DNA of 64,000 nt, taken from contig CAZDYD010000001.1 of assembly GCA_964509715.1 (NCBI GenBank), positions 99 to 64,098 of the forward strand. The letters are read 5' to 3'. Source of the DNA: an uncultured Chitinophagales bacterium (GTDB lineage Bacteria; Bacteroidota; Rhodothermia; Balneolales; HLUCCA01). Positions within the stretch are counted from its first letter, which is position 1. Each line of letters opens with the position of its first letter. The notes beneath the pieces are model-generated. The model ran no database searches, was not told where the DNA came from, and saw only the letters and a program-made list of their open reading frames with translations. Below, one piece after another: positions 12,172-57,121 of the stretch. The translations under genes were made by a program, and so were the position numbers.

Positions 12172-12176
12172 AAAAT

Positions 12177-33711: not shown

Positions 33712-33719
33712 ACCTTCTC

Positions 33720-34271: not shown

Positions 34272-34392
34272 AGATCTTAGGGTTAAACGACAGTATGTAT
34301 TGGTATTCCATAAAACAATTGGAGCGGATATGAATCCGCAGGATGTTAACCATCCACAAACATGCGACCATATTTACAGGCCGCGTTATGAC

Positions 34393-34971
34393 TCATTTCG
34401 GGCCGATAAACTTTTCTTTTATCACCACCCAAACTCCAAAAAACATCGATAGGCCAATAAAAATCGATCCGGTATGTGGAATCGAACATGCCCGAATATT
34501 TAGTAGCTGCTTGCAACCAAGTAAAGGAGGTTGGTAACTCATCCCGGGTACTTTTATTGGTGCATCTGGACTGAGATTATGACCATAATCATATCCCCAC
34601 ATATAAAAATCAGCAAATCCCACAACTGCCAGCAAGATCATAGATACAACCCAAAGCATACTTAATTTTAAACTACCTGTTGTAGCAGCAAGTAAACCAA
34701 GAGCGATCAGGACTCCGAATACCCAGGGCATTATCTTGAATTCTTTAAAATCTTCCTTGTGAATCTCACCCATTCCAATGTAATGGTTCAAGGTATTAAT
34801 GCTTTTTAAGTCGTGTCGTTTGTGTCCCGTTACATCATTAATATGAATATACATTCCAATACCCTCTGGATATTGGGGAGCACTCATTTTAATGGACCAG
34901 AACGGCATGAAATACAGCGGTATCAATAATAGTGCTGCAAGTGCCATGTATACTTTTGAGCTGATTTTCAT
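34393..34971 (-). CDS. integral membrane protein of the clade-II nos cluster (NosB-position protein)
   Basis: It has about 4 TM segments and lies immediately downstream of nosZ. I took ATG 34971 (MKISSKV) as the start. Confidence 0.6.
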   Translation of the reverse strand: MKISSKVYMALAALLLIPLYFMPFWSIKMSAPQYPEGIGMYIHINDVTGHKRHDLKSINTLNHYIGMGEIHKEDFKEFKIMPWVFGVLIALGLLAATTGSLKLSMLWVVSMILLAVVGFADFYMWGYDYGHNLSPDAPIKVPGMSYQPPLLGCKQLLNIRACSIPHTGSIFIGLSMFFGVWVVIKEKFIGPK

Positions 34972-35104
34972 AATGATATCCTTAACCTGGTTGAAGCCGG
35001 ATCCGATAACACACCGGATCCGATACTTCGTCATTGTCTATATATGTCTTTGACTCAATCAATTAACTCAATTGATGTTCAGCCATAAATGAAATATTGA
35101 ACCA

Positions 35105-37081: not shown

Positions 37082-37245
37082 AGGTTTTTGTTTTGATTTT
37101 GGGGGATGAATCGGGTTGTTGTTTGGCTTCGATTCAATCGTTTTCCGTGTCCGTTTTGGAACCACGAGTTTGGTTTGTTTATGCGATTCAGCGTTCGTAC
37201 TAGGTCATATTATGAGATGTACTTCTGTTCGAACTACTCTAAATG

Positions 37246-43229: not shown

Positions 43230-43733
43230 TTAATATCTGATTCTAAGAACCGTTGGTGAACCTTCTCCTTTAAAGTTGAGGAACATCAGATTCCCATAAT
43301 CCGATTCATCAAAATCTTCAAATTTTTGCTCGCCCAAGTAATGATTTGCGGCACGGGGAGTGGAATTTGAATGACCACAAACTAACACAACTCCACCGAG
43401 ATTTTGTCTCAAAATATCGTCCAGATCAGATGCATTCCGATGACTGTATATTTTCAATTCCAGTCCATAAAAATCAGCTGTTGGACCACACGTTTTACGG
43501 GTTCTGATAAAGTCTGTAGAATACACAGCCGTAACTCCAGTAGTTGACAACATGTTTTTGAGGACGGTAGCCCTGGAGACACCCTCTGGACTCAGATCCG
43601 GATCAGCAGAATCATCTACTTTCTCAGCATGCCTCACCAAAATCAAAGTTGTAGACTGCTGAGCTTCAGAGTCGATAGTCAAAAAACCCAAAGAGATTAT
43701 AATAACGACCAAAAAACTAATGAAATATTTCAT
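43230..43733 (-). CDS. secreted histidine phosphatase superfamily protein (SixA/PGAM-like)
   Basis: It has a signal peptide, the 'LVRHAEK' (RHG-type) motif, and 'VCGHSNSTP'. Confidence 0.8.
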   Translation of the reverse strand: MKYFISFLVVIIISLGFLTIDSEAQQSTTLILVRHAEKVDDSADPDLSPEGVSRATVLKNMLSTTGVTAVYSTDFIRTRKTCGPTADFYGLELKIYSHRNASDLDDILRQNLGGVVLVCGHSNSTPRAANHYLGEQKFEDFDESDYGNLMFLNFKGEGSPTVLRIRY

Positions 43734-43880
43734 ACTAAACCCAATCAAACTCTATTCATCGATTGATTATTTTATTGCTGCTAATGTATAAACATTGTAC
43801 TTCAATATATTAATTCTACCTAGTATTTATGCTATTTGTAAATTATAAATGAACAGAATTTCTATGCATTGAATATCACG

Positions 43881-46800
43881 TCATTTGATCAACATCATCT
43901 TGTCATTGAAAACTTTTCCGTTTGCAATCATACGAACAAAGTAAACACCAGAAGCTAACCCACGAGGTCTGAACTCAATTTCATAGTACCCGGCTTCATA
44001 TTCTTTATCGGCAACATCAAATACCATGAGGCCATTACTGTTGAAAATCTGAAGGCTGATGTTCATTCTTTCCGGTACAGTTACTGGTAATTTTGTCCAC
44101 TCCGAAAATGGATTCGGGAAATTATTACCCAGCTTGATTTCTCCATCTGCAAACAAGAATAGAATATTGATTTTCTGATCCAGTTCCAGTCCTCCGGCAA
44201 TGACCTTGAATGTAGCCTCACCTGCCTTCGACGAACTTACCTTGAATTCCGCAACCCCCTCGCTATCTGTAATCTCACGTACTATTGTGACGACATAATC
44301 CGGGTCAGATGGTTCGAGAATAATTAAAACATCAGAAAGTGGATCGCCATCGTCACTTATCAGTTTAATGGATACATCAGCCTGTTGCTGACCATTTGCC
44401 AAGATTCTACTGGCTGATGGTCTGGCAGTTGAGTTTTCCAGATCAATTTGATACGTAGTAACCGATGCTGTATTTGAATTCGTGCTTACTGACGTACTCG
44501 TCCCGGCTCGGACCCTATAGTAATACGTCGTCCCGGGTGACAGTCCAGTTACTTTGAATTCATTGATATTACCCACATTCAAGTTGTTGTAACCTGACAC
44601 CATCTGGGAGAAATTCTCATCCCTGGAGACATCCAAACGATATAAAGTAGCGCCGTTTACAAGCTCCCAGCTAGCTGTAAACTCTACGGCACCAAGTAAT
44701 ATGGGGAAGTTAGCTATCGGAGGGACCGGTATAAAATCAAAAACTGCCCGTGTATTGATATTTACTCGTCCTGCCATCACAGAAAACTCTACTCGTCCCG
44801 CATGGTCAGATCTAACTTGGAATGATGCATTACCCGCAATGTCTGATATACCCCGAAGTGTTATGATCTGTGCGTTCTCGTCTGTCGTATTAAGGGTTAC
44901 CGGAACTCCCTCCATGGCCTGTCCGTCTTCGCCTTTTATGATGATTTCAACAGTCCCAACAGCTACACCATCACCTAACACATTCCTCTGAACAACGTTC
45001 ACCTCCGTAAGGTTTGCATCAGCCTGAGGTGTTTGTGAGAGGGTCACATTAGAATTCTGACTGGTTCCTGTGGTTGCAACCGCTCTGACTCTGTAGTAAT
45101 ACTCATTCCCGGGATATAGGCCTGTCAGCCTGAAACTTGTTTCATTACCCACATTTCGGTCATTGAACCCGGTCAATAGTTCAGAAAAATCAGCAAACTC
45201 AGAAACATCTAATCTATAGGATGTCGCCCCACTAATTGGTTCCCAATTTGCTACAAATGTGCTTGCAAAAACATTGGTAGCCGGCCTTGAAACGGGAGCC
45301 ACTGGGATAAATGCCATTCTATATTCGGTTGAGACATTCACATTGATAGCCCTGGCACGATAAGTCACAAATTCTGCCCGACTATTTCTAACTGTAAATC
45401 TTGTCTTGCCATCTTCATCTGATATATCCGAAAGTACTTCAATTACAGATTGTCCTGTAAGTGCTGTTAACGTTACTTTAACTCCATCAAGAGGATTTCC
45501 AACCGCATCTCTCACAGTGATAGTAAACTGTCCGCGATCAGTTCCATTCGATAACACTTCTTCGACGTCTGATTCGAAAGAAGATGAGTTCGGATCTATG
45601 GCTATGGTCCTAACAGATTGTACTTCCGAATTAAGAGATTCGACATTATAGTTTGAATTTACAGCCCTGACTCTATAGTATAATCGAGTATCTGGCAAAA
45701 CATCTCTCAAAATATATGAGCTCACATCGCCGACGTTAAATGAGTCGAATCCCAGATAAGGTTGTGTGAAGTTGTTGTCATATGCAATGTCTATCTCATA
45801 GTGAGTAGCTTTATCTATCTCGTTCCATTCAGCTGTAAAACCAATGGCTTTGATATCACTGGGCGGTAACAAATCTGGTGTAAATGGGATTGTTGTGACA
45901 ACAATTGGATTACCGAACGGACCCGTTATTGTACCATTAGCATTCGTTGCCCGAATGCGGATATAATACCTTTCCACTGATTCGAGTCCAACAGCTTCGA
46001 ATATCGTTTCATTCCCATTATCAAAACCTGTATATGTAGATAATTTGTTCTGAAAATCAGGATCATAAGCTACATCGACCACATATTTTTCGGCGTTTTC
46101 AGCTGGTTCCCATGATATTTCGACTTGCTCTGTACCAATTTCAACAACCTCAATTTCAGATGGTGCATCCAGAATTGTATGAACACCCATCACGTCTGAG
46201 ATCCCTCCAGTTGAATTGTTTTCGTCACTTCTGGCTCTTACACGATAAAAATATCTTCGGTTTGGACTCAACTCTTCAACGAGAAACGTAGTATCGGCCG
46301 ATACAACTCTCCCATTATAATCTGATAAAACGTTATTAAACAGACTATCTGTTGCAACAAAAAGTATATATTGATCGACCCGTGGGACACTTCGCCAGTT
46401 TGCCCTGAATGACCGGGAAGTAACATTTGTAGCCGTTGAAATTACAGGTATTTCCGGTAAGGTAAACACCCTCACCCGTTCAGAGTTTTCACTTGTCAAT
46501 CCTGAAGTCGAGCTACTGGCCCGCACCCTGATGTAATGAGCAGATGCAGACTCAAGCCCACTCAATAACAATGTAGTTGATGAGCCATTGTTATAATTTT
46601 CATAGCCGGGAAGAAATTTGGTGAACAACGAATCTGTTGCTACATCGACTATGTATCTGTCTATTCCCGCTACCGGTTGCCAATTAACAGTAAAAGATGA
46701 ACTGGTTATGGAGGTCGTTGGCTGCATTACCGGCGGACGACTCGGTGTATTAACAGAACCGATTGCCGAGCTTACACTCGTTACATTTAAATTCGTATTT

Positions 46801-48824
46801 CTGGCACGAAGTCTGTAAAAGTAACGTGATAATGGCTGTACGTTCTCTACAGTAAATGATGTGACATTTCCGGTACTTCTGTTATTATAACCGGTTAAAA
46901 ATGTACTGAAGGTCGAATCGGTTGAAACATCAAGAAAATACGTATCGGTTCGGGGAACATTTTGCCAGTTCACCTGAAACTGAGTTGATTGAACATCAGT
47001 AGTGGCCGAAAGCACGGGAGCATCCGGTAAAGTATTTAATCCTATTACTATTGAATAGCTGCTACTTTGGTTACTTATAGAGCTCCTTGCACGCACACGA
47101 TAAAAATATGACGTAGCAGAGGTCAGACCCGTCACATTGAAACTGGTATTATTACCGACATTCCTGGCTTCAAAACCGTTTACGTATCCACTGAAATTTG
47201 AAAAAGACGATACATCAAGTATGTATTCATTAGCCCCGTTTACAGCTTCCCAATTGGCCGTAAATGTTGATGATGTGATATTCGATGCCTGTCTCGCAAC
47301 AGGAGGCACACTTGAAGTCACCGCTTCCATGGCATTGGAGTTACCACTCGTTAGACTTTGCTGTGTGTTAACAGACCTGACTCTATAATAGTACTGTGTT
47401 AACGGATTCAATCCGGATACATTGAACGAAGTAACATTGCCAACATTCCGGTTATTATAACCACTCACAAATGAACCGAAATTAGGATCTGTAGACACAT
47501 CCAGTCGGTATTGATCTGCCAGACAGTTGGCATTCCACCGAGCGGTAAATGAGGTAGCTTGTACATTGGATGCAGCTTCGATCAACGGTGGTGCGATTCT
47601 GGTAGACTGGGAATGAGCATCAATTATAAATCCAGTTGAAGTTGCTATGGACTGAACTCTTCTGTTATTTGGGGTAAGCTCAACATTAAGAAAATGCCTC
47701 ACATTCCATTGTTGCTCAATATACCAGAAGTTAAAATCTACAGGACCTAAAGGTATTGCAAACCCACCATCACCAATATACCGCACTCCACATGGATCAA
47801 TTTGGTCGTTTTTTATTGGATGTGTTCGTTTATATCCATGGTTGTCGTGTTCAAAGACAAAACGCACATTAAACTGTTCAAAAATTGGGGCCCAGTATTG
47901 TCGTACTTCATATCCTCTTCCAGGTACAGCCTCTCTTTTACTTGGATAGGCAGCTACGTGATACACCGGAAATACGTTCGTCACATTACGACGTGCATTC
48001 AGTTGATTTACAAGCCATGATGTCTGTGTGCCTTCAATACGTACAGTGTGATCTGTATTGAGTACAATCAGACTTAGATAATCGCTGAAATCCAGCACCC
48101 TGTATCCCTGAGTTCCAGGGAAATTAAATAGAGCATGAAAATATTTTGCATCCGCTGGTTGTCCCCCAAATCGTTGGGGCAATTCATGGTTTCCAAGTGA
48201 TGCAACAATAGGTATATGATAATCCTGTGGAGTTTTCATGTACTTGGTCCACTCAGATAAAAACTTGAAGTACCTATTCAATGTGTTAGCATTGTATTCA
48301 TTCGCTTCATTCAAATGGACCAAATCACCAGCCAAAATTGCAAACATCGGATTGGTTTGTCTAACACGTAAAGCTGATTCAATAAAAAACTCTGTTTCCA
48401 ATGCCGGATCGGTACCGTCACCATACACATCACCCGTAACCATAAACCGAACCGTATTGTCCATATTGGTCGGCATGGTTCTGAAATATTGACTCTGAGG
48501 ATCATTGCCAATTCTGAAAGCATAGTTGGTAGCAGGGGTTAGACCAGTAATTTGTACCGTCTTCCGCTTAACAGATGCGTCGGGAATCGTATGTACCGTT
48601 CCAGTTACTGTAACCCAGGGATCACCGGAATTCCTGACCCTGTAAGATACTTCGGCGACACCGGATGTATCGTCCTCGATCCAGTTGATGATCATGGTGC
48701 GCGTCGGATCATTCATCCATTCGAGATACACGATCGTCGAATCTGCATAAGATTGGGCATGTAGTTTTCCTGCAAATAGAACCAGGAAAAACAACAATAT
48801 GATATATGATTTGTTTTGTTGCAT
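43881..48824 (-). CDS. giant T9SS-secreted multidomain protein: purple-acid-phosphatase-like metallophosphoesterase + 9 FN3-like modules + 3 Ig-like domains + T9SS C-terminal sorting domain
   Basis: It has a signal peptide (IILLFFLVLFAGKLHAQ). Metallophosphatase motifs are 'VTGDVYGD', 'AILAGDLVH', 'SLGNHE' and 'FEHDNHGY'. Nine modules end in 'Y(Y/F)YRVRA'. The last 82 aa ('NFPNPFS...GVYFVRMIANGKVFNDKMMLIK', about 43884-44129) look like a type-A T9SS CTD. I prefer ATG 48824 over the track's TTG at 48842. Confidence 0.88.
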   Translation of the reverse strand: MQQNKSYIILLFFLVLFAGKLHAQSYADSTIVYLEWMNDPTRTMIINWIEDDTSGVAEVSYRVRNSGDPWVTVTGTVHTIPDASVKRKTVQITGLTPATNYAFRIGNDPQSQYFRTMPTNMDNTVRFMVTGDVYGDGTDPALETEFFIESALRVRQTNPMFAILAGDLVHLNEANEYNANTLNRYFKFLSEWTKYMKTPQDYHIPIVASLGNHELPQRFGGQPADAKYFHALFNFPGTQGYRVLDFSDYLSLIVLNTDHTVRIEGTQTSWLVNQLNARRNVTNVFPVYHVAAYPSKREAVPGRGYEVRQYWAPIFEQFNVRFVFEHDNHGYKRTHPIKNDQIDPCGVRYIGDGGFAIPLGPVDFNFWYIEQQWNVRHFLNVELTPNNRRVQSIATSTGFIIDAHSQSTRIAPPLIEAASNVQATSFTARWNANCLADQYRLDVSTDPNFGSFVSGYNNRNVGNVTSFNVSGLNPLTQYYYRVRSVNTQQSLTSGNSNAMEAVTSSVPPVARQASNITSSTFTANWEAVNGANEYILDVSSFSNFSGYVNGFEARNVGNNTSFNVTGLTSATSYFYRVRARSSISNQSSSYSIVIGLNTLPDAPVLSATTDVQSTQFQVNWQNVPRTDTYFLDVSTDSTFSTFLTGYNNRSTGNVTSFTVENVQPLSRYFYRLRARNTNLNVTSVSSAIGSVNTPSRPPVMQPTTSITSSSFTVNWQPVAGIDRYIVDVATDSLFTKFLPGYENYNNGSSTTLLLSGLESASAHYIRVRASSSTSGLTSENSERVRVFTLPEIPVISTATNVTSRSFRANWRSVPRVDQYILFVATDSLFNNVLSDYNGRVVSADTTFLVEELSPNRRYFYRVRARSDENNSTGGISDVMGVHTILDAPSEIEVVEIGTEQVEISWEPAENAEKYVVDVAYDPDFQNKLSTYTGFDNGNETIFEAVGLESVERYYIRIRATNANGTITGPFGNPIVVTTIPFTPDLLPPSDIKAIGFTAEWNEIDKATHYEIDIAYDNNFTQPYLGFDSFNVGDVSSYILRDVLPDTRLYYRVRAVNSNYNVESLNSEVQSVRTIAIDPNSSSFESDVEEVLSNGTDRGQFTITVRDAVGNPLDGVKVTLTALTGQSVIEVLSDISDEDGKTRFTVRNSRAEFVTYRARAINVNVSTEYRMAFIPVAPVSRPATNVFASTFVANWEPISGATSYRLDVSEFADFSELLTGFNDRNVGNETSFRLTGLYPGNEYYYRVRAVATTGTSQNSNVTLSQTPQADANLTEVNVVQRNVLGDGVAVGTVEIIIKGEDGQAMEGVPVTLNTTDENAQIITLRGISDIAGNASFQVRSDHAGRVEFSVMAGRVNINTRAVFDFIPVPPIANFPILLGAVEFTASWELVNGATLYRLDVSRDENFSQMVSGYNNLNVGNINEFKVTGLSPGTTYYYRVRAGTSTSVSTNSNTASVTTYQIDLENSTARPSASRILANGQQQADVSIKLISDDGDPLSDVLIILEPSDPDYVVTIVREITDSEGVAEFKVSSSKAGEATFKVIAGGLELDQKINILFLFADGEIKLGNNFPNPFSEWTKLPVTVPERMNISLQIFNSNGLMVFDVADKEYEAGYYEIEFRPRGLASGVYFVRMIANGKVFNDKMMLIK
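45597..47591 (-). repeat. seven tandem 285-bp (95-aa) FN3-like coding modules in exact register
   Basis: The conserved R-V/L/I-R codon triplets sit at 47376, 47091, 46806, 46521, 46236, 45951 and 45666, spaced exactly 285 nt apart. Two further modules lie at about 45015-45299 and 44439-44723, each preceded by an Ig-like insert of about 97-99 aa. Confidence 0.85.
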
Positions 48825-48835: not shown

Positions 48836-49600
48836 TTACCAAGGTAACTGACTTTTAGCAATTTCAAGATCGGCATGATCATCAACCTCAACCCAACCCC
48901 GGTGAATGGATCGATAATGCAGTTTACCTTTTGATGCCAAATGATTTAACAAATCTGTCATATATGCCATGTCCAACGTTCGACTACTATTCCAAGCATT
49001 ACTTATTTGATTCCCATCGTTTTTTGCATTCTCATATTCGGCACGAACGATCTCACATCCTTTTGAACTCAATTTGATCAAACCTATGTATTGTCCCTGT
49101 ATTTCATTGATGTCCTTTGTTTTACTTCCCAACGACAGTACCCTGCCCTCGGGACCCTTAATAAACGTTTCAGCATCGCTCAATGGATCATCAAATCGCA
49201 TCGACCAATACGAGTTCCACTCTTCATCACAAGCAATTACAATATCTCGCTCATCTTCCATCATTGCATTGAGAACTTCTTTTGAATATACAATATCGCC
49301 GTATGCTATAATGACATCACCATACAGTTGATCCTCAGCACAAAACAGGCTACTGATCATATTCGTTGTTTCGTAACGTGGGTTAATAATCTTAGTAACC
49401 CGAGCATCCGTAATTTTTTCCTGCTTATATCCCGCGATAACAAAAATGTCCTTTATCCCACATGCTTCCAATACATCCAGATGCCATAACAACAATGGAC
49501 GTCCTGCCGCTTCTACCATACATTTTGGCACATGATCTGTATATGGTCTTAATCGTGTTCCTTGCCCGGCGGCAAGAATAATTGAATTAAATGAGCTCAT
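48836..49600 (-). CDS. nucleotidyltransferase (LicC/Cj1416-like cytidylyltransferase fold); candidate CTP:phosphoglutamine cytidylyltransferase
   Basis: It has the N-terminal NTP-binding loop 'ILAAGQGTRLRPYTDHVPKCMV' and is 254 aa. It overlaps the upstream GATase gene by 14 nt. Its stop lies 11 nt before the giant gene's ATG. Confidence 0.7.
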   Translation of the reverse strand: MSSFNSIILAAGQGTRLRPYTDHVPKCMVEAAGRPLLLWHLDVLEACGIKDIFVIAGYKQEKITDARVTKIINPRYETTNMISSLFCAEDQLYGDVIIAYGDIVYSKEVLNAMMEDERDIVIACDEEWNSYWSMRFDDPLSDAETFIKGPEGRVLSLGSKTKDINEIQGQYIGLIKLSSKGCEIVRAEYENAKNDGNQISNAWNSSRTLDMAYMTDLLNHLASKGKLHYRSIHRGWVEVDDHADLEIAKSQLPW

Positions 49601-50261
49601 CTGTCTGTTTGAATACCTGTCTGAATGATTGTATATCTATTGTGTTAAAAATCTCTTCTCTCTCAGGATGCCACATCCAGCCCTCCCATGCCATTTTTTC
49701 AGAACGCATCGCTTCGATTTGATTATCCTCAGAACGGGCTATTACAAGATATCCCTCCGGACACTTACTCAGCGATAATCCATGAAAACTGTTAACATTG
49801 TGGTTAAATTGACCTTTTAAATTGTGTCGGGTTCGAATATGCCCCTGCACCGATTCAAGTTCAACCCCTCCAAAAACACCAAGCATTTGCATGCCCCTGC
49901 ATATCCCAAGTACCGGAAGCCTATGTTTCATCGCAAAGCGTAGTAATACCAACTCCGTGATGTCACGATCGCTACAAGTCCCAATGTCATTCCCTCCCGA
50001 TAATACAATTCCCGAAACATTCTGAGAATTAATAAACTGGAGAAGTTTCGCGGTTTTATTGCGTTTAAGAAGGATCTCGTCTGTCGGTAACCGACCGGGT
50101 CTAACAGTTAATCCATCCGCTTCGACCAATGAGTTAGGAACAGGTATAGCTACATAGCCTGCTACACTTATAAATTGAACCAACGCCTGGTCAAGTGCAT
50201 CACGGCGCTCACCCCGATCAGGGTATTCATCAATTCGTTGTGAAACTAGGAGTACACTCAT
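49587..50261 (-). CDS. class I glutamine amidotransferase-fold hydrolase (peptidase C26 / Cj1417-like); candidate gamma-glutamyl-CDP-amidate hydrolase
   Basis: It has the nucleophile elbow 'LGICRGMQML' and the His/Glu region 'WHPERE'. It is 224 aa. It overlaps the upstream gene by 4 nt. Confidence 0.7.
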   Translation of the reverse strand: MSVLLVSQRIDEYPDRGERRDALDQALVQFISVAGYVAIPVPNSLVEADGLTVRPGRLPTDEILLKRNKTAKLLQFINSQNVSGIVLSGGNDIGTCSDRDITELVLLRFAMKHRLPVLGICRGMQMLGVFGGVELESVQGHIRTRHNLKGQFNHNVNSFHGLSLSKCPEGYLVIARSEDNQIEAMRSEKMAWEGWMWHPEREEIFNTIDIQSFRQVFKQTDELI

Positions 50262-52585
50262 GCTATAACCTCAACCTTACAGTTGGCACAATCAATGTCG
50301 AGTCTCCTCGAATTTGACCAAAGATGGTACTTGGATTCACCTGCACCAATTATGGCTGGCAATCCCAACTCATTCGCTCTGATAGCCATATGGCTGTTAG
50401 CACCACCATAACACGTAATCAAACCGGCGATTTCATGCGAAAACAACCAATCATAACCTGGATCTGCACTTGATATACAAACTATTTTACCGACCAGGTT
50501 TTGGGTATTTTCTGAGCTACAAACTTCGGCATTAATGCGCTGTTGTGTTATGAAATTGGGCTCAGCCTCCGGAAGTTCAAATGCCCAGATATCATGCTCG
50601 GAAGTAAGGAGTGGTGGCAAAACGACCCTGCATGTTCTGGCATATGCTTCCCGTCCACTTTGAATCGATTGTTCCAGAATCTGTTTAGGTTCCACTGATG
50701 AGCGATACATCTCATAAAAAACATCGATACTTGCAAAGGACATATCATCTCTTGTGAATCCATGTAGTTCGCCAAATTCTGCTATCAGTTCAATCGCATC
50801 ACTCAGGTTTCTTGTAAACTCAAACTTAGATGACTCGCGTAATTCAATACCTGCCTGTAGAAACTCAAGGAATCCAATTACATCATTGTCCATTTGATGC
50901 TTCTTGAGCAACTGTTCGATTTTTTTCATCTGATCCAAGCCTAATTTGAATTCAGGTTTTGAATGCTTGCCCTCGCGATCAACATGATCCCAATCAAAGT
51001 AAAGATCGGGAGATTTATCATACCTACTCGACAAAATATCGTAGGTCCCGGGACGCAAGTGACCATATTTTTCGAGGAAATCATCCCGATCCAATCCGGC
51101 AAGATCACGTGGCAACTGACTCGATACCGCATCCAGACTGTTGATAAAGCGATCACTTTCAGCTTGGGTCATCACACCCATTGCAACCAGTGATTTTAAC
51201 AACGAAACCGATATAAAACCCGCTCGAGCTAATCCGGCAAATGGCAACGTTCCATAGCGCTTACAGTCTTCCAGCAGCCAGTATATTCTGGTTATATGAT
51301 CTGTCGTTGCACCGTATAATCTGGACCTGCGTTCAGCCAGTGTCTTTACTCTTTCAGCGTCACCAACCCATAATCCGCTTTTTGCATTGATAATACGATT
51401 TGTAAGCGATCTTAGACTTTCTCTGAGCGAACGGCAATCTTCGTCCGAGAAACCGGATTCTCTTAACCGACTCATCCGGTCATCCAAATCAAAGGTATAA
51501 CAGGTATATACTATTTCAAATTCGACTTTATCATGCAACTGAGGATTAGCTTCCAATCGATCCAGATAGTAATCCACAAGTCTGTCGGCCAGATCCGTAT
51601 CAATATCTTTAGGGATAAATGAATTGAAACTCACCCGCACATCAACGAATGGTTGTCCACCGAAATCTATCAACAAGGGATGACTTCTCAGATTTTTGTA
51701 CCCATAATTGTTACGTTGATATGCCCAAGTAGAATTCGTAATCAACTCCCGGTAAAGAGAAAAAGCAAGGGGACGAGGCCGGGTTCCAATGATTTCGGCA
51801 GGATTCCAATCGGGCATTACACCATAAATTGTACGCCGACCATGCAAAAAAGGGTGCGGTTTAAATCCATCTGATGCTTTTTTTGCTACTTTCTTTAAGA
51901 TTTCACTATGGTCAGTCACATTAAAAACCGACTCTCGCATCACCAATGGACGTGCCTGAAGCAAATAAATCGAACCATCTGCCGTAACTCCAAACTCAAC
52001 ATCCAATGGTTGACCCGGTACAAGTACTTCTAATTCATCCAACAATTTGAGAATAGGTACCAGGTCGTAAGAAACATCATGCTCGGAAGATTTTGCTGAG
52101 TAGAATGTTCGGGTATTTTTCCCGGAGGTTACCGCAGTTGTATCATCTCCATCGGTCCACTCAATAACCCTATAGGGTGCCCCTGTAACTGAATCGGCAG
52201 TAAAAGCTACTCCTGATCTCACTACGTTCTGTAGCATTGGCTGCACAAGAACTTCATCTTTAAGGTCAGCCTGATCACCGAATGATTGTATGACCTTTTC
52301 GATTGCTTTCTTTAGCCCTTCCCTTCCCGAAACATGTAAAACAGAATCATAATAACCTGCCAACGACTCCAGTGCACTATCTTCTGCTACACCACTTGAA
52401 CGCACGATCATGCTTCCCGATGACCAGTCCAAAGATAAAATTCGGTCAAGTATTGCTTGTTCATCCGATTGCCAATCGGCAAGACGAAAATAATACAATG
52501 GCAAAACCTTGCAGGATCGAACTTCGGGAGAGAGCAATTCAAGAGTCCGTGCTTTGGATGCCAGTGTAATTTGTTTATCTGCCAT
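50258..52585 (-). CDS. PEP-utilising-enzyme family phosphotransferase (ATP-grasp N-domain + C-terminal phosphohistidine swivel domain); candidate L-glutamine kinase (Cj1418-like)
   Basis: It has an N-terminal PPDK_N-type region ('MIVRSSGVAEDS', 'VLVQPM'). The swivel motif 'GGANSHMAIRANELGLPAIIG' has its His at residue 732 of 775 (codon 50390-50392). No PEP/pyruvate TIM-barrel domain follows it. Confidence 0.7.
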   Translation of the reverse strand: MADKQITLASKARTLELLSPEVRSCKVLPLYYFRLADWQSDEQAILDRILSLDWSSGSMIVRSSGVAEDSALESLAGYYDSVLHVSGREGLKKAIEKVIQSFGDQADLKDEVLVQPMLQNVVRSGVAFTADSVTGAPYRVIEWTDGDDTTAVTSGKNTRTFYSAKSSEHDVSYDLVPILKLLDELEVLVPGQPLDVEFGVTADGSIYLLQARPLVMRESVFNVTDHSEILKKVAKKASDGFKPHPFLHGRRTIYGVMPDWNPAEIIGTRPRPLAFSLYRELITNSTWAYQRNNYGYKNLRSHPLLIDFGGQPFVDVRVSFNSFIPKDIDTDLADRLVDYYLDRLEANPQLHDKVEFEIVYTCYTFDLDDRMSRLRESGFSDEDCRSLRESLRSLTNRIINAKSGLWVGDAERVKTLAERRSRLYGATTDHITRIYWLLEDCKRYGTLPFAGLARAGFISVSLLKSLVAMGVMTQAESDRFINSLDAVSSQLPRDLAGLDRDDFLEKYGHLRPGTYDILSSRYDKSPDLYFDWDHVDREGKHSKPEFKLGLDQMKKIEQLLKKHQMDNDVIGFLEFLQAGIELRESSKFEFTRNLSDAIELIAEFGELHGFTRDDMSFASIDVFYEMYRSSVEPKQILEQSIQSGREAYARTCRVVLPPLLTSEHDIWAFELPEAEPNFITQQRINAEVCSSENTQNLVGKIVCISSADPGYDWLFSHEIAGLITCYGGANSHMAIRANELGLPAIIGAGESKYHLWSNSRRLDIDCANCKVEVIA

Positions 52586-52640
52586 TAAATTGATACCGTT
52601 TCTTTATTTCAAACATCATTGGTTGTTAACGTGCACACTC

Positions 52641-53171
52641 TCAGACCACACCTAACTCATCAAGTTGACGCAACAATTCAGAAAAAGTCTCTTGTTGTCC
52701 CATAGTGGGATCAAATCGAAGCATAATATCTGGATTCTTTGGGAAGTCTACTTTCAAATCGATACCGGCAACATTATTGATCTCATTACGATCATAACGC
52801 TTATAGATCCCCTTTGAGTCTCTTCGACGTAATTCCTCTACAGGGACATCCAAAAAAATCTCGCAATAACCGGGCAGATGGTCCCGATTCCACTTATGAA
52901 CCTCCTCGAATAGAGAAATTGTTGCGATAGCAACATCAAAACCCTGATCGGCAAGTAGCTTGCACAATTTGGAATATCGAAGCGCCAAGGCTAACCTATC
53001 TTCTCTGGTATGGGCCTTAACAGCTCCTACTACAGCTCTGATTTCGTCTCCATCCAGTTGAACAACAGTCCGACCATGCTCACGTAGGTGTTTCACAAGC
53101 ATACTGCACATAGTGCTTTTGCCGGAATCTGATAATCCGGTTAGCCAGTAAACACGTGCAGAATTCTTCAT
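52641..53171 (-). CDS. APS-kinase-fold nucleotide 3'-kinase (CysC/Cj1415-like); candidate cytidine diphosphoramidate kinase
   Basis: It has the P-loop 'YWLTGLSDSGKST', 'LDGDEIR', and 'FLDVPVEELRRRDSKGIYK'. It is 176 aa. No sulfate adenylyltransferase gene is in the window. Confidence 0.7.
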   Translation of the reverse strand: MKNSARVYWLTGLSDSGKSTMCSMLVKHLREHGRTVVQLDGDEIRAVVGAVKAHTREDRLALALRYSKLCKLLADQGFDVAIATISLFEEVHKWNRDHLPGYCEIFLDVPVEELRRRDSKGIYKRYDRNEINNVAGIDLKVDFPKNPDIMLRFDPTMGQQETFSELLRQLDELGVV

Positions 53172-53221: not shown

Positions 53222-53245
53222 ATCACAAAACGATGAATTTGTGAT
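53222..53245. promoter_or_regulatory. perfect 8-8-8 palindrome in the divergent promoter region
   Basis: ATCACAAA-acgatgaa-TTTGTGAT lies about 50 nt upstream of the kinase gene start and about 140 nt upstream of the DAO-like gene. Confidence 0.45.
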
Positions 53246-53385
53246 AGGGTGCAATTTCACGACCTACAAGACCGTCAAACTACGAAGCTTTGAAATAATT
53301 ACCAATTTACATACACCCATTTGAAGTAAAATCAAATCCGTGTACCTTCAGTTTCCGAAACAGTTTATCATTTACTATTCGATCC

Positions 53386-54342
53386 ATGAAATCAATTGCT
53401 ATCATTGGACAGGGCGTCATTGGACTCACCTCGGCCGAGGCATTACTGAATGCCGGTTATCACGTTGACATCATTTCAAAGGATGATTTACCCATGACGT
53501 CATCTATGGGCGCTGGTGCATATTGGTGGCCACATAAAGCCTATCCTCCACAGCGTGTGTCCCGCTGGTCTAAGGTATCCTATGACCGGTATAAGGAACT
53601 ATCCGCTATTGCTGGATCAGGTATATATATGCACGAACATTTCCGTTACTGTATCATTGATGATGAAACGAGATATGCACTGGAGTTGACCGATTCATGG
53701 GAAATCATAGAACAAAAGGATATCCCATTTAACGTTTCAGAAGCTTTCAGATGTATCGTCCCGATTATGGATGTTCCAGTGTTCATGCCTTGGCTCAAAG
53801 CAACCGTACAGAAATTAGGCGCGAGATTTATAACCCGCGAATTATCAAGTCTGGATGAATTGCATGACGAGTATGATATAATGATCAATTGTTCAGGTCT
53901 CGGAGCAAAATCATTAGCCGATGACTCGACGGTTTACCCCATTAGAGGACAAATCCTGAGGATGGAGAAACCAGCAGATTTTTCCAACTCGTTCAGATTG
54001 GTCCACCAACCACCCGGACTCACACTCATTCTGCCCCGTTCTGGTGATCTTTTACTTGGAGGTACCACTTCTGAAAATGATTTCAATACTACACCTTCCG
54101 AAGCCGACACACATGCCATTATTGAAAGATGTGCAAAAGTAGTTCCAGAAGTTCGTGATTTGAAGTTACTTGGTACGAGCGCTGCACTCCGACCTGGCAG
54201 ACCTGAAGTTCGATTAGATGCACAAACTCTGTCAAATGGGTCTGTGGTAATTCATAACTACGGTCATGGTGGATCAGGATACACCGTAGCATTTGGTTGC
54301 GCAGTAGAGGTTCTTGAGATCCTAAAGCACGTTACGAGTTGA
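53386..54342 (+). CDS. FAD-dependent oxidoreductase, D-amino-acid oxidase family
   Basis: It has the dinucleotide fold 'IAIIGQGVIGLTSA' and the DAAO-type C-terminal signature 'HNYGHGGSGYTVAFGCA'. Confidence 0.85.
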   Translation: MKSIAIIGQGVIGLTSAEALLNAGYHVDIISKDDLPMTSSMGAGAYWWPHKAYPPQRVSRWSKVSYDRYKELSAIAGSGIYMHEHFRYCIIDDETRYALELTDSWEIIEQKDIPFNVSEAFRCIVPIMDVPVFMPWLKATVQKLGARFITRELSSLDELHDEYDIMINCSGLGAKSLADDSTVYPIRGQILRMEKPADFSNSFRLVHQPPGLTLILPRSGDLLLGGTTSENDFNTTPSEADTHAIIERCAKVVPEVRDLKLLGTSAALRPGRPEVRLDAQTLSNGSVVIHNYGHGGSGYTVAFGCAVEVLEILKHVTS

Positions 54343-57121
54343 TGGATTGAAACTTACTCTCCAATAGTTGCATACTTTCATCTACACCACTCCAATCCGC
54401 GGGTGCCCCGTTGATCATCAATTGGGCAGATCTTTTGAGGAATATTGATGCGGCTTTGTCTTTGGGATTTTTCTGGAGCACATCATTGAAGTGCACACTG
54501 GCATTTGTGAAGTTCTTGCTATAGAACTCTCTGAGTCCGGCCTCAAAATCATCTTTGGTATTCAACTCGAGCGCCATTTGTTCATCATCATCACCTTCTA
54601 CTACACCGAAAACATCAAGAACCGACTTTTTCCCTTTGACCCTTGTTTTGCCAAGATATCTGAGATGAGGTTGAGCTGATTCGCCAAGTCCATCTTTTAC
54701 ATCAGAACTGATAATAATCCTGTTGTCAAAGAGCTTGGTCAGACCCTCAAGTCGAGAAGCAGTGTTGACGACATCTGAGATTACGGTTCCTTCCATACGC
54801 AATTCTTCGCCAATAATCCCAAGCATCAGTTCTCCGGAATGAATACCCGTTCCGGTAATAATGGGCTCAAGATTTTTAAGGTTACGCTCCTTATTAAGTG
54901 CCTTAAGTGCGGCCGTCATACTAATGGCAGCATCAACCGCGTCTTTCGGTCCACCAGGGAACAAGGCCATGATGGCATCACCGATAAATTTATCGATAAA
55001 ACCACCTTTTTCACGAATCACTGGACTGACCACCCCCAAAAATGCATTGATAAAATCAAATGCTTCTTTTGGTGTCATCTTTTCCGATAGTCTTGTGAAA
55101 TCTTTGATATCGGTAAACATGATCGACATGTTTTGCTGTTCCTGGTCGCCCAGTTTGATGTCAAGTACACTGTCATAACCGAGGAAACCAAGAAATTCGT
55201 GAGGCACAAACCGACTAAACGCATGATTGATCTTGCTAAGCTCAAGATGCGTTTTAATTCGAACCAACAGCTCATCCTTAGCGATGGGCTTGGTAACATA
55301 GTCATTAGCGCCCACTCTGAATGCTTCCAATATATCGGTCACATGATTCTTAGCGGTGAGCATGATGATCGGAAGCTCAATTTTGTCATATTCAAGTCTA
55401 AGCTCAGTGCACACCTCATACCCATTCATCTGAGGCATCATAATGTCAAGCAGGACAACATCGGGAAGATACCCATCTTTGATGGCTTGTAAGGCACTTG
55501 GACCATTAAAGTAGGTGCTCACTTCGTACCCAGCTTTACCAAGTTGAGCCGTCAGTACCTTCACGTTTATGACTTCATCATCAATAACCATGATTTTGAA
55601 CTTGTCGCCAAGACGCGCATTTCGATGCGGACGAATTTGTGTAAGGGCTTTGTTATTGGCGCGTGGTGATATTGAATAATTATCAAATTCGTCGTTGACC
55701 CTAGCCGGTTCCTGGGTAGAATTCAATTGAAAACTAAAAAACGAACCGAATCCCTCGGCCGACTCCATGGTAAGCTTGCTGCCATGGAGCTCAATCAGCT
55801 TATTGCTAATCTTGAGACCAAGTCCCGAATTATGACCACCCACTCCTTGTTGTACGAGCTCACCTTCAAATGAATTCAATATTACTTGAAGATTATTTTG
55901 AGATAAGCCTTTCCCGGTATCTTCAATCATAATTGTGACTTTATCGCCACTTCGATCCACATCAACGGCCACATATCCCTCATCGGTAAATTTCACTGAG
56001 TTCCCGACCAGGTTGTGTAGGATTTGTTCGAGTTTGCCCTCATCCGCTATTACATTCACAAAATCAGTCGGGACATTATTTCTGAGTTCAATCCCTTTTG
56101 TTGACGCCGTTGAAAATTGTAGCGCTAGTACTTTGCTCACAATCGACCTGAGATGGACCGGTGTTTCATTGAGTTGAATGGTTTCATAGCGGATCTTCGA
56201 AAGATCAAGTAAATCATTTAAAAGGTAGGTCAGACGTCGGCCACTTTCAGCGATCAATTTCAGGTTCAAATTGACAGCGGGAGACAGTTCCCCTTCAGCG
56301 CCTTCAATTAATAATTCACTAATACCGATAATACCACCCAATGGAGTTCTAAGTTCATGGGCAACCATTGCAACATGTTCATCCTTCAATCTGTCATTGA
56401 TCATAAGGCGGGCCATTCCCTCACCGGTTGTTTGAGGTTGAGCATCAACTACAGACCGTTGAATATGAGTAGTGCCACCACCATACTGATTCACTATAAG
56501 ATAAGTGAGGCTTAGAACAGATCCACTTACTACAACGTGCATCCCGATTTTTTGATACAGATCAGAAAAATGGATACCAATAAATCCCAATAAACCCAGT
56601 GCAGTTGCGATTACGGTCAGAATCAACATGCTAACTGCTGGCAAATTAGAAGCCCGGTCATCTTTCAATACGTACAAGCTAAAACCTGACGCAAACAATC
56701 CGATAAACAGAAGTATAACTATGGATGCAGCTATGGCAACATCCGTAGACAGAAAGGGTCCCACAATAGTCAGGAAAACGGTAAGACCAAAACACATCGC
56801 CAAATATGTATCGGTGATGCCATTATTCTCGAAGGCACGGGTCAGATTCTTAAGTACCATCAGCAACTGAAAACAGACCGCCGAAGTGATAAAAATGATG
56901 AACTTGTAGGCAGTAAGGGTACTGTAAACCGAATAACTTGAAAATACACCAAGATCGATTATGGCAAGGAATGCACCCGCAAGCAATACAAAGATACTTG
57001 CGTTTAGAAAAATTCCGGTTCTCGATTGAAGGTATCTGAAACCTAAATAAACAGATATGGCTATATGAAGGCCATAAAAAAGACCCTTGCCAACGGCTTC
57101 ATAAAACATTGACTCTAACAT
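54332..57121 (-). CDS. hybrid 7TM sensor histidine kinase - receiver - class III adenylate/guanylate cyclase
   Basis: It has about 7 N-terminal TM helices. The H-box is 'HELRTPL'. The HATPase blocks are 'EDTGKGL' and 'GLGLKIS'. The REC domain reads 'VIDDE..LLDIMMPQMNGYE..LTAK'. The cyclase blocks are 'MFTDIKDFTRLSE', 'GDAIMALF' and 'VVNTASRLEG'. The C-terminus is TPR-like. Confidence 0.88.
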   Translation of the reverse strand: MLESMFYEAVGKGLFYGLHIAISVYLGFRYLQSRTGIFLNASIFVLLAGAFLAIIDLGVFSSYSVYSTLTAYKFIIFITSAVCFQLLMVLKNLTRAFENNGITDTYLAMCFGLTVFLTIVGPFLSTDVAIAASIVILLFIGLFASGFSLYVLKDDRASNLPAVSMLILTVIATALGLLGFIGIHFSDLYQKIGMHVVVSGSVLSLTYLIVNQYGGGTTHIQRSVVDAQPQTTGEGMARLMINDRLKDEHVAMVAHELRTPLGGIIGISELLIEGAEGELSPAVNLNLKLIAESGRRLTYLLNDLLDLSKIRYETIQLNETPVHLRSIVSKVLALQFSTASTKGIELRNNVPTDFVNVIADEGKLEQILHNLVGNSVKFTDEGYVAVDVDRSGDKVTIMIEDTGKGLSQNNLQVILNSFEGELVQQGVGGHNSGLGLKISNKLIELHGSKLTMESAEGFGSFFSFQLNSTQEPARVNDEFDNYSISPRANNKALTQIRPHRNARLGDKFKIMVIDDEVINVKVLTAQLGKAGYEVSTYFNGPSALQAIKDGYLPDVVLLDIMMPQMNGYEVCTELRLEYDKIELPIIMLTAKNHVTDILEAFRVGANDYVTKPIAKDELLVRIKTHLELSKINHAFSRFVPHEFLGFLGYDSVLDIKLGDQEQQNMSIMFTDIKDFTRLSEKMTPKEAFDFINAFLGVVSPVIREKGGFIDKFIGDAIMALFPGGPKDAVDAAISMTAALKALNKERNLKNLEPIITGTGIHSGELMLGIIGEELRMEGTVISDVVNTASRLEGLTKLFDNRIIISSDVKDGLGESAQPHLRYLGKTRVKGKKSVLDVFGVVEGDDDEQMALELNTKDDFEAGLREFYSKNFTNASVHFNDVLQKNPKDKAASIFLKRSAQLMINGAPADWSGVDESMQLLESKFQSINS

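Follow-up and report, generated by a model that had tools for sequence, protein, structure and literature searches.

Four consecutive minus-strand genes were found in the window, i.e. the whole 64-kb stretch of DNA that was analysed, and ORF and Pfam checks agreed with the folds, sizes and overlaps that a sequence-only reading had attributed to them. In the direction of transcription, they encode a mpnD/Cj1415-like kinase of 176 aa with an APS-kinase fold (52641..53171), a mpnA/Cj1418-like protein of 775 aa combining an ATP-grasp with a swivelling histidine domain (50258..52585), a mpnB/Cj1417-like hydrolase of 224 aa with a class-I glutamine-amidotransferase (GATase) fold (49587..50261) and a mpnC/Cj1416-like, LicC-type nucleotidyltransferase (NTase) of 254 aa (48836..49600). 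Their predicted activities are those of a CDP-amidate 3'-kinase, an L-glutamine (amide-N) kinase (GlnK), a gamma-glutamyl-CDP-amidate hydrolase and a CTP:phosphoglutamine cytidylyltransferase, respectively. The GlnK-like and GATase genes overlap by 4 nt (50258-50261), and the GATase and NTase genes by 14 nt (49587-49600). The co-directional cluster runs on past the NTase gene with a giant gene for a secreted protein of 1647 aa (43881..48824, minus strand), starting 11 nt after the NTase stop codon, and then with a gene for a secreted protein of the histidine phosphatase superfamily (167-172 aa; 43230..43748, minus strand). On the other side of the cassette, an FAD-dependent oxidoreductase gene (53386..54342, plus strand) is transcribed divergently. 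The nearest named relatives were a Balneolaceae MAG (68%) and a syntenic 'Chitinophagales' MAG (73%); together with the T9SS sorting domain of the giant protein, they make it plausible that the DNA comes from an uncultured FCB bacterium. The cassette genes are under purifying selection: strain-level substitutions amounted to 0 N / 8 S in the kinase and 0 N / 7 S in the GlnK-like protein.

The 775-aa protein consists of an N-terminal ATP-grasp, a middle domain made of helices and, at the C terminus, a swivelling phosphohistidine domain. Pfam identified PPDK_N (residues 57-167, E 3e-16) and the PEP-utilizers mobile domain (residues 699-767, E 7e-13), and no PEP-utilizers_C, the PEP/pyruvate TIM barrel. 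The protein passed NCBIfam model NF004508/PRK05849 (984 bits, cut-off 501). It did not group with PpsA, PPDK or antibiotic phosphotransferases, whose models it failed by hundreds of bits: the PpsA, PPDK and rifampin phosphotransferase (RPH) models scored 30-63 bits for cut-offs of 456-1700, including 44 bits for RPH (cut-off 999) and 50-63 bits for PpsA (cut-offs 598-883). The PigC model was also far under its cut-off. The AF2 model (pLDDT 75) had RPH as its best solved architecture match and was aligned with it over its full length by Foldseek (E 7e-19). When compared with RPH and PEP synthase/PPDK, the 775-aa protein shares the ATP-grasp, the helical substrate domain and the swivelling His of RPH, and the implied mechanism, transfer via a phosphohistidine, is common to both; however, identity to RPH is 14-16%, the PEP/pyruvate TIM barrel is missing and the genomic partners are different. 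Residue His732 lies in a GG.NSHMAIR motif and was invariant among the 15 diverse family members aligned. Judging from its position, it would be the equivalent of His737 of Cj1418, reportedly the catalytic phosphohistidine (Taylor et al. 2018). Conservation is high in the GlnK family, with invariant residues all through the middle domain, and homologues 53-75% identical to the 775-aa protein are annotated 'glutamine kinase' by JGI.

The 254-aa NTase matched Pfam NTP_transf_3 (E 6e-15) and NTP_transferase, and its best PDB relative was LicC (1jyk, E 2e-15). Its gene directly follows that of the hydrolase. Among the curated models, none is specific to this type of NTase. The NTase signature ILAAGQGTRLRP...PKC, of the G-x-G-T-R...K type, was conserved, as were the family-wide motifs RF.DPL.DAE.F, GQY.GL and W.E.D. 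The 224-aa protein was assigned to Pfam Peptidase_C26/GATase (E 4e-19), with an intact catalytic triad made up of Cys121 (GICRGMQ), His198 and Glu200 (MWHPER); at least 90% of the GATases from cassettes share the motifs G.CRG.Q and MWHPER. Its best NCBIfam family, with a lead of 12 orders of magnitude in E-value, was NF045546, gamma-glutamyl-CDP-amidate hydrolase. It scored 92 bits and missed the equivalog cut-off of 250 bits, as did the GATases of canonical cassettes from Leptospira, Synechococcus and Humidesulfovibrio (only 85-99 bits), so that this cut-off appears to be Campylobacter-narrow. An insertion of ~25 aa, specific to the clade, is present in the hydrolase around residues 46-70, and the GATase is the least conserved of the cassette partners (50-54% identity).

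The 176-aa kinase matched Pfam APS_kinase (E 6e-30) and displays a P-loop (G12-T20) and an LDGDEIR motif (residues 39-45). It passed NCBIfam PRK05541 (188 bits, cut-off 127), a family that, like PRK05849, presumably contains C. jejuni Cj proteins. It did not fall inside bona fide CysC: the apsK equivalog TIGR00455 was failed (104 bits, cut-off 139), as were PRK00889 and PRK03846, and the APS-binding motif GDN.RHGLN.DLGFS..DR.EN.RR has become GDE.RAVVG.VKAHT..DR.ALALR. The loss of this motif is common to all cassette-linked kinases.

Co-occurrence was counted over 85 independent loci carrying a GlnK-like gene, which was accompanied by the kinase in 80, by the GATase in 82 and by the NTase in 81 of them. 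The order GlnK-GATase-NTase was conserved among loci, and natural fusions joined a GlnK-like protein to APS_kinase, to NTP_transf or to GATase. These observations argue against a chance neighbourhood of CysC, PpsA, PuuD and LicC. The earlier proposal of a Cj1415/Cj1418/Cj1417/Cj1416-type module, with four co-conserved genes, was borne out in anatomy, family membership and co-conservation by these counts (80-82 of 85 loci), the fusions with GlnK, the family models, the intact motifs, the protein sizes and the A-B-C order. Relatives at ~50% identity or above were present in at least ~579 GTDB species from many phyla, Bacteroidota and Balneolaceae included, and the family comprised 1,590 representatives (50%-identity clusters) at E<=1e-30. 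Cassettes were seen in Pseudomonas, Chitinibacter, Leptospira, Synechococcus, Nitrospira, Flavobacteriaceae and others. Compared with those of other cassettes, the proteins of the window were 49-75% (GlnK), 28-74% (kinase), 31-53% (GATase) and 30-73% (NTase) identical, and the methyltransferase-bearing cassettes of Leptospira, Synechococcus and Humidesulfovibrio gave the same NCBIfam score pattern. By identity, score pattern and motifs, the window proteins are typical, and their cassette is an ordinary member of a very widespread mpnA-D-related family.

To our knowledge, research on cell-surface P-N bonds has been almost confined to Campylobacter. The view that this chemistry is essentially limited to that genus is contradicted by the number of species and clusters in the family. 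A review from 2022 still describes glutamine kinase as C. jejuni-specific (PMC9561416). Since the cassette family extends to hundreds of species in many phyla, envelopes may be decorated with phosphoramidates far more often than published work suggests. The sequence-only reading had also presented an FCB genome as a new context. This held only in part, as relatives already occur in Bacteroidota and some are labelled 'glutamine kinase' by JGI. The window clade is distinctive in another respect: its cassette is accompanied by a giant neighbour and by no methyltransferase, TagF-like or sulfotransferase-like candidate transferase or glycan genes.

In C. jejuni, mpnD, mpnC, mpnB and mpnA encode proteins of 170, 253, 200 and 779 aa, with a gene order A-B-C (PMC7901785). 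The cassette of the window shares the four folds, the A-B-C order and similar sizes (775/224/254/176 aa as compared with 779/200/253/170 aa for A/B/C/D). Its hydrolase has as best NCBIfam family one named for the Cj1417 activity, and the phosphohistidine swivel motif is conserved. This likeness was established from folds, sizes, order and family models rather than from direct sequence identity. Several differences were observed. The kinase gene comes after mpnC in C. jejuni and before mpnA in the window, and the window hydrolase differs from the Cj1417 family by its score under the equivalog cut-off and by its insertion. The C. jejuni cassette belongs to a capsule (kps) locus, whereas that of the window lies outside any kps locus, in an environmental Balneolaceae-like bacterium. 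C. jejuni also possesses Cj1419/Cj1420-type methyltransferases and a Cj1421/Cj1422-type transferase, and no methyltransferase gene in the window and no recognisable transferase gene adjacent to its cassette correspond to them. Dedicated phosphoramidate transferases of the Cj1421/Cj1422 type are about 610-640 aa long.

A SAM methyltransferase gene was present in 71 of the 85 loci, mostly immediately upstream of GlnK, TagF-like genes at ~33 and Sulfotransfer_3-like genes at ~10, the latter two types together flanking ~43 cassettes; a CysQ/Inositol_P-family gene was found inside 13 cassettes, and many of the loci sit among glycan genes. In contrast, the window clade has none of these methyltransferase, TagF-like, Sulfotransfer_3-like, CysQ-family or glycan genes at its cassette, and a giant phosphatase-like protein is found instead. 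In agreement with the earlier claim that neither kps/capsule genes nor an ATP sulfurylase were nearby, Pfam and ORF checks revealed no glycosyltransferase, kps, polysaccharide-export or ATP sulfurylase gene in the rest of the 64-kb window. No ORF of the window contained a SAM methyltransferase domain, tblastn searches of the window with three cassette-linked methyltransferases gave no match, and neither TagF-like genes, cassette-type sulfotransferase-like genes nor other recurrent cassette partners were found there. The only remotely relevant genes were one for PFOR at a distance of ~27 kb and one of the Sulfotransfer_3 family at ~25 kb (23697-24620). With no recognisable transferase, methyltransferase or acceptor-building gene within 64 kb, the pathway is thus without a visible endpoint here. 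It is worth mentioning that the missing methyltransferase and transferase, as well as the tightly linked giant secreted protein, had been overlooked earlier.

From their homology to the enzymes characterised in C. jejuni, we infer with a probability of about three in four that the four genes specify a mpnD/A/B/C-type route leading from L-glutamine plus ATP and CTP to an activated phosphoramidate donor. The C. jejuni enzymes convert Gln, ATP and CTP into CDP-phosphoramidate 3'-phosphate (PMC11800397). In the window, the ATP-grasp of the 775-aa enzyme would phosphorylate His732, from which the phosphoryl group would pass to the amide nitrogen of glutamine, yielding L-glutamine phosphate. The LicC-type NTase would then combine this product with CTP into CDP-L-glutamine, which the Cys121-His198-Glu200 hydrolase would split into glutamate and CDP-amidate. 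The APS-kinase-fold enzyme would finally phosphorylate the 3'-OH of CDP-amidate, giving 3'-phospho-CDP-amidate, a PAPS-like donor. The cassette genes would be translationally coupled. As no methyltransferase gene lies beside the cassette, the donor most likely delivers an unmethylated phosphoramidate group; such groups are known from the LPS of Xanthomonas and Shewanella and from C. jejuni (PMC3907429; PMC9561416). The target would most likely be a cell-envelope glycoconjugate, with the gene for the transferase lying in another part of the genome.

Other loci echo the PAPS-like logic, with CysQ/Inositol_P genes inside 13 cassettes and sulfotransferase- or TagF-like genes flanking ~43. The locus survey points to TagF-like and sulfotransferase-like folds as candidate transferases, and it hints at recycling by a CysQ-like protein. 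The cassette of the window represents a minimal, core-only version with no methyltransferase or recognisable transferase, and as such would be a clean source of enzymes.

The protein encoded by the giant gene comprises a signal peptide, a purple-acid-phosphatase (PAP)-like metallophosphoesterase domain at residues ~25-410, about a dozen fn3 and three Big_1 domains and, at the C terminus, a T9SS sorting domain (Pfam families Pur_ac_phosph_N, Metallophos, fn3, Big_1, Por_Secre_tail); its strain-level substitutions were 6 N / 16 S. The AF2 model had a pLDDT of 88.6, and its best PDB matches were plant purple acid phosphatases (TM 0.75-0.77). A canonical PAP was rejected: the fold is present, but two of the seven canonical metal ligands are replaced. 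Motif GDxxY has become GDL[VI]H (GDLVH in the window, with Tyr changed to His), and [NH]HxH has become HDNH (motif V, with the first His changed to Asp), in 4 of 4 orthologues. This N-terminal domain is a PAP-like variant.

A rather unlikely alternative is that the cassette and this T9SS-exported protein, possibly together with the secreted His phosphatase, form one system, in which the donor would decorate the surface protein or its anchoring glycan, or in which the variant dinuclear domain would trim or transfer P-N groups at the surface. The 11-nt spacing on the same strand is consistent with it, as is the adjacency kept in three diverged sub-lineages (GlnK 71-75% identity) despite differing downstream flanks. 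Conservation of both metal-ligand substitutions in 4/4 orthologues suggests an altered, selected active site, and the absence of the usual transferase and glycan genes from the window clade means that some other partner is needed. However, the giant gene adjoins the cassette only in loci L001-L006 and L010. The pairing is clade-specific, confined to one syntenic clade, so that shared descent explains it equally well. Moreover, L006 has another gene and a 263-nt spacer between the cassette and the giant gene, relatives of the phosphatase domain that stand alone are located away from cassettes, and the phosphatase domain is exported while the donor nucleotide is found in the cytoplasm. We also know of no precedent for a PAP-fold phosphoramidate transferase. 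As to the secreted His_Phos_1 protein (Pfam E 4e-9), its co-directional gene follows the giant gene after 132 nt and is conserved nearby in L005 only; the protein weakly resembles the LPS-core phosphatase PmrG over its full length (E 9e-4), and its membership in the cassette unit is uncertain.

The pairing nevertheless provides a lead to a new acceptor. A more speculative scenario, which we regard as unlikely, is that the phosphoramidate module became uncoupled from glycan loci and was recruited to a T9SS surface system. Unmethylated P-N groups would then be put on the giant fn3/PAP-like protein or on its anchoring glycolipid, or the variant dinuclear centre (Tyr to His, His to Asp) would act on P-N bonds outside the cell. 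If true, this would be the first link of phosphoramidate chemistry to a secreted protein or a metallophosphoesterase.

It is still less probable that the same enzymes make a different CDP-activated phospho-donor, such as CDP-L-glutamine itself or a phosphoramidate that has another amide as its source. Biochemical data on the cassette family come from its Campylobacter members, and LicC-type NTases activate varied phospho-compounds: in the pathway of the flagellin Type A glycan of C. difficile and P. aeruginosa (CD0241-CD0244), an NTase of this type has been proposed to make a CDP-amino-acid-phosphate donor, CDP-threonine in C. difficile, from which a TagF-like enzyme would transfer the phospho-group to the glycan (PMC10714395). 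The latter enzyme parallels the TagF-like genes beside many cassettes, of which the window has none. Divergence of the GATase, with its clade-specific insertion, its lowest identity among the partners and its score under the NF045546 cut-off, would also fit a changed product. On the other hand, the Type A glycan pathway has no glutamine kinase, amidotransferase-fold hydrolase or 3'-kinase, and its product is a phosphodiester rather than a P-N compound. The almost universal co-conservation of hydrolase and 3'-kinase is sensible only if the glutamyl moiety is removed and the nucleotide then 3'-phosphorylated, and both the intact GATase triad and the high conservation of the GlnK family, with its invariant middle-domain residues, argue in the same direction.

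That the kinase is the organism's CysC, supplying PAPS for sulfation (e.g. by the Sulfotransfer_3 protein of the window), and that the four genes do not form one pathway, is very improbable: the APS-kinase fold, with CysC and PAPSS kinase domains as closest solved structures (E 1e-22), the JGI name 'adenylylsulfate kinase' given to orthologues, and the sulfotransferase-family gene in the window, whose homologues occur in polysaccharide loci as expected of true sulfotransferases, are outweighed by the failure of every CysC model but the PRK05541 subfamily, the lost APS-binding motif, the clustering of the kinase with cassette-linked kinases (80 of 85 loci), some of them fused to GlnK, and the absence of ATP sulfurylase from the window. 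Likeness to the PAPS pathway is real in the CysC fold, in the predicted 3'-phosphorylated nucleotide donor and in the CysQ-family and sulfotransferase-fold genes that accompany the cassette in other genomes; it ends with the missing APS motif and sulfurylase, and with a nucleotide and a transferred group predicted to be cytidine and phosphoramidate.

Upstream of the cassette, the divergent gene encodes an FAD-dependent oxidoreductase of the D-amino-acid-oxidase family (318 aa; Pfam DAO E 3e-36), annotated 'D-amino-acid oxidase' by JGI. It lies beside the cassette only in the window clade, and the orthologues in L005, L006 and L010 share its position, with 55-58% identity. A 16-nt motif, AAAGCTTCGTAGTTTG (53276..53291, minus strand), precedes the start codon of the kinase gene by ~100 nt and may act as a promoter or operator for the cassette. 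An Rfam search with this motif matched no family. It occurs once in the window, for 0.04 matches expected by chance, and it was invariant in four lineages, with the remaining spacer ~60% identical.

Four consecutive minus-strand genes make up the cassette, encoding a kinase (52641-53171; 176 aa, APS_kinase), GlnK (50258-52585; 775 aa, PPDK_N ATP-grasp and PEP-utilizers mobile domain), a GATase-type hydrolase (49587-50261; 224 aa, Peptidase_C26/class-I GATase) and a nucleotidyltransferase (NTase, 48836-49600; 254 aa, NTP_transf_3) whose nearest solved relative is LicC. ORF coordinates, sizes and overlaps, the latter of 4 nt and 14 nt among the GlnK, GATase and NTase genes, were exactly those stated by a previous sequence-only reading, and Pfam confirmed the four folds it had claimed. 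That reading had also assigned the genes to a phosphoramidate-donor pathway of the Campylobacter jejuni Cj1415-Cj1418 (mpn) type. We consider this biochemical interpretation very probably right (probability of about 0.75). The cassette is a genuine, intact and selected mpnD/A/B/C-like set, and five independent lines of comparative evidence favour its being one mpn/Cj1415-1418-type pathway.

Likeness to Cj1415-Cj1418 was judged by family models, protein sizes and gene order; the PDB matches of the four proteins included no Cj structure. On NCBIfam PRK05849, GlnK reached 984 bits against a cut-off of 501; models of PEP synthase, PPDK, rifampin phosphotransferase and PigC gave it no more than 30-63 bits (cut-offs 456-1700). 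The kinase passed the PRK05541 subfamily only (188 bits versus a cut-off of 127), remained below the apsK equivalog (104 versus 139) and failed the other CysC models as well. Both PRK05849 and PRK05541 are families that we take to be built around the C. jejuni proteins. For the hydrolase, the top family was NF045546, 'gamma-glutamyl-CDP-amidate hydrolase', with an E-value twelve orders of magnitude ahead of any other and a score of 92 bits that lies under the 250-bit cut-off. Cassettes of Leptospira alexanderi, Synechococcus and Humidesulfovibrio scored alike (kinase 145-207, hydrolase 85-99, GlnK 971 bits), from which it follows that the window proteins are typical of a wider family and that the hydrolase cut-off is simply narrow. 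Homologues 53-75% identical to GlnK bear the JGI KEGG-derived label 'glutamine kinase', which is third-party support and not a test. The C. jejuni mpnD, C, B and A proteins have sizes of 170, 253, 200 and 779 aa (PMC7901785), compared with 176, 254, 224 and 775 aa in the window, and the A-B-C order is identical.

Conserved residues pointed in the same direction. His732 of GlnK lies within an invariant swivel motif, GG.NSHMAIR, the hydrolase retains Cys121 together with His198/Glu200, and the NTase retains the G-x-G-T-R...K signature and family-specific motifs. In all cassette-linked kinases, including that of the window, the CysC motif LDGDN.RHGLN.DLGFS..DR.EN.RR is replaced by LDGD[EQ].R..FG...R..LA..Y. 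An AF2 model of GlnK (pLDDT 75) found its top match in rifampin phosphotransferase, across the whole three-domain architecture and at 14-16% identity. Judged from this model, GlnK would resemble that enzyme in its working, an ATP-grasp domain loading a swivelling histidine, but it does not belong to its family.

The four genes also travel together. A GTDB scan based on one genome per species returned at least 579 GlnK relatives, of which the best 80 were kept, Campylobacter not being among them. Over 85 loci, excluding the window's own contigs, tblastn found the kinase beside GlnK in 80, the hydrolase in 82 and the NTase in 81; gene order was nearly always GlnK-GATase-NTase, and the rare absences of a partner were mostly on short contigs. 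The GlnK family comprised 1,590 representatives at E<=1e-30. Proteins of about 960-1070 aa numbered 27 among the best 150 of these, and Pfam analysis of eight showed a partner domain joined to GlnK in five and no recognisable extra domain in three. The fusions were of the types APS_kinase-GlnK (n=3), NTP_transf-GlnK (n=1) and Peptidase_C26/GATase-GlnK (n=1), with the partner domain always at the GlnK N-terminus (library proteins P0177, P0184, P0226, P0276 and P0318). Since each of the three partners is represented, they constitute Rosetta-stone evidence for all three. None of the outcomes that the sequence-only reading had named as refuting it was observed: GlnK stands outside the PpsA, PPDK and phosphotransferase models, the kinase fails the apsK equivalog and all CysC models other than PRK05541, and the four genes are co-conserved. 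The cassette genes are under purifying selection: strain-level substitutions were 0 nonsynonymous and 8 synonymous in the kinase gene, and 0 and 7 in that of GlnK; at deeper nodes dS was saturated and dN ranged from 0.19 to 0.45.

The claim that a complete cassette in a genome of the FCB group, which includes Balneolaceae, would represent a new context was overstated. Cassettes outside Campylobacter are not new to databases, where they are very widespread: carriers in the GTDB scan included Pseudomonas (P. putida among them), Chitinibacter, Ensifer, Leptospira, Synechococcus and Nitrospira, as well as Actinomycetota, Verrucomicrobiota, Acidobacteriota, Flavobacteriaceae, Kapaibacterium and Balneolaceae. 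Viral carriage was limited to one truncated relative (28%). The accessible literature barely mirrors this wide distribution; a 2022 review called the kinase 'C. jejuni-specific' (PMC9561416), and a similar archaeal cluster was mentioned in a Borg preprint. Pipeline labels of the cassette partners were generic or wrong ('adenylylsulfate kinase', 'PuuD', 'choline kinase'). The cluster of the window itself recurs on four metagenome contigs, and the closest of its named relatives are a 'Chitinophagales' MAG (GlnK 73% identity, synteny >10 kb) and a Balneolaceae MAG (GlnK 68% identity). Cassette GC (0.42-0.43) equals that of the window, so composition does not point to recent horizontal transfer.

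Flanking ORFs of 83 loci were clustered and analysed by Pfam and hhalign in order to describe the usual partners. A SAM methyltransferase of about 250 aa was present at 71 of the 85 loci, directly upstream of GlnK in 63, and matches Cj1419/1420 of C. jejuni. Genes of the TagF-like CDP-glycerol-phosphotransferase fold (Glyphos_transf-fold) occurred at about 33 loci (e.g. L007, L011, L015, L020 and L036), a count that includes a 394-aa family without Pfam assignment joining the TagF-like profiles at 98% hhalign probability; Sulfotransfer_3-like genes occurred at about 10 (e.g. L062 and L088). Both kinds of neighbour are candidate phosphoramidate transferases. At 13 loci, including L014, L021, L024, L028 and L029, a CysQ/Inositol_P-family gene is inserted between hydrolase and NTase, which suggests, by analogy with PAP removal after PAPS use, a recycling of the 3',5'-bisphosphonucleotide by-product. 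The partner set fits a PAPS-like logic of 3'-phosphorylated donor, transferase and 3',5'-bisphosphate recycling. Other recurrent partners were DegT aminotransferases, acyl- and formyl-transferases and glycosyltransferases, and cassettes at 60-68% GlnK identity lie within classic glycan loci (NeuB, CMP-sugar synthetases, GT2/GT4, ABC-2 exporter). The TagF-like genes beside cassettes echo the TagF-like and LicC-like pairing proposed for the C. difficile flagellin glycan (PMC10714395).

The cassette of the window's clade (loci L001-L006 and L010) is a bare core, devoid of any recurrent partner family, and tblastn found no match to these families anywhere in the 64-kb window. The sequence-only reading was essentially right about the surroundings, where it had seen neither kps/capsule genes nor an ATP sulfurylase or PEP/pyruvate metabolism partner: Pfam assigned unrelated functions to the remaining large ORFs (among others PFOR, nos cluster, beta-lactamase-fold proteins, galactokinase, ECF sigma set, ABC-F, M19 dipeptidase), and no glycosyltransferase, kps gene, ATP sulfurylase or SAM methyltransferase was found among them. 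As there is no methyltransferase, the product on the acceptor is likely an unmethylated phosphoramidate. The LPS of Xanthomonas and Shewanella is known to carry such groups, and C. jejuni has them as a variant (PMC3907429, PMC9561416). Locus L006 keeps a 313-aa orphan gene (L006:6044-6985) between NTase and the following giant gene; the window has no copy of this orphan. Relatives of 313-323 aa follow the NTase in glycan-type clusters of Balneolaceae (L007:15954-16925 and L011:15861-16826); the family had no Pfam match, nor hhalign links to TagF or sulfotransferase families. The orphan suggests a stepwise reduction from a glycan-locus ancestor.

One Sulfotransfer_3 gene (23697-24620, plus strand) lies about 25 kb from the cassette. 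A role as the missing transferase was not supported: hhalign joined it to the cassette-linked sulfotransferase-like family at only 61% probability, no BLAST-level relatives were near cassettes, and homologues belong to ordinary polysaccharide loci without cassettes. Its neighbours are PFOR on one side and, on the other, a beta-lactamase-fold gene with which it shares 4 nt. The homologues seen in polysaccharide loci come from Balneolaceae, cyanobacteria and others; the window copy has no surrounding glycan genes.

What is really odd about the locus is that it lacks methyltransferase, transferase and glycan genes and that, as a conserved trait, it adjoins the gene of a giant T9SS phosphatase-like protein whose metal site is altered. 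The co-directional run of genes continues past the NTase, which had been overlooked. The giant gene (43881-48824, minus strand; 1647 aa) starts 11 nt past the NTase stop. Its product combines a signal peptide with a purple-acid-phosphatase-like metallophosphoesterase domain, about 12 fn3 and three Big_1 domains and a T9SS C-terminal sorting domain. The predicted N-terminal domain (pLDDT 88.6) superposes on plant purple acid phosphatases (TM 0.75-0.77), and its closest sequence relatives are stand-alone 'acid phosphatase type 7' proteins of about 400 aa (30-38% identity). In all four giant orthologues GDxxY became GDL[VI]H (Tyr to His) and [NH]HxH became HDNH (first His to Asp); both changes are absent from about 20 stand-alone homologues, and judged from these residues the dinuclear site appears to be a selected variant. 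A functional link between cassette and giant protein is a lead of low probability, since their pairing is limited to one syntenic clade, the stand-alone relatives are not near cassettes, and the domain is exported whereas the donor is cytoplasmic. The phosphatase domain was likewise discarded as a general cassette partner, its stand-alone homologues adjoining flagellin/GT9 or inositol-catabolism genes. Downstream of the giant gene is a small secreted His_Phos_1 phosphatase (43230-43748, minus strand), whose alignment with PmrG, the LPS-core heptose(II)-phosphate phosphatase, is weak but full-length (NCBIfam E 9e-4).

Upstream of the kinase lies a divergent gene for a D-amino-acid-oxidase-family (DAO) FAD oxidoreductase. 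In the spacer between the two, the 16-nt block AAAGCTTCGTAGTTTG (53276-53291, minus strand), some 100 nt ahead of the kinase, shows no change across four lineages, against about 60% identity in the rest of the spacer. It occurs once in the window. We regard it as a candidate promoter or operator. Rfam gave no match on the leader region including this block, and scans for intrinsic terminators and sigma-70 promoters showed no enrichment over shuffles. An 8-bp palindrome upstream of the kinase, ATCACAAA-N8-TTTGTGAT (53222-53245), was dismissed as it is not kept in relatives. Convergent with the DAO gene, with an 11-nt 3' overlap, is a gene for a 929-aa hybrid histidine kinase/receiver/adenylate-guanylate cyclase (54332-57121, minus strand), kept in L005 and not in L010.

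Elsewhere in the window, a nitrous-oxide reductase cluster (30374-37165, minus strand), with a NosZ-type propeller (686 aa), NosL, NosD, a NosF-like ABC ATPase and a NosY-like permease, indicates N2O-respiring potential. The genes at 10808-12986 (plus strand) encode an ECF sigma factor and, after it, a HEAT-repeat and a DUF4097 'toastrack' protein; together they are probably a sigma/anti-sigma module.
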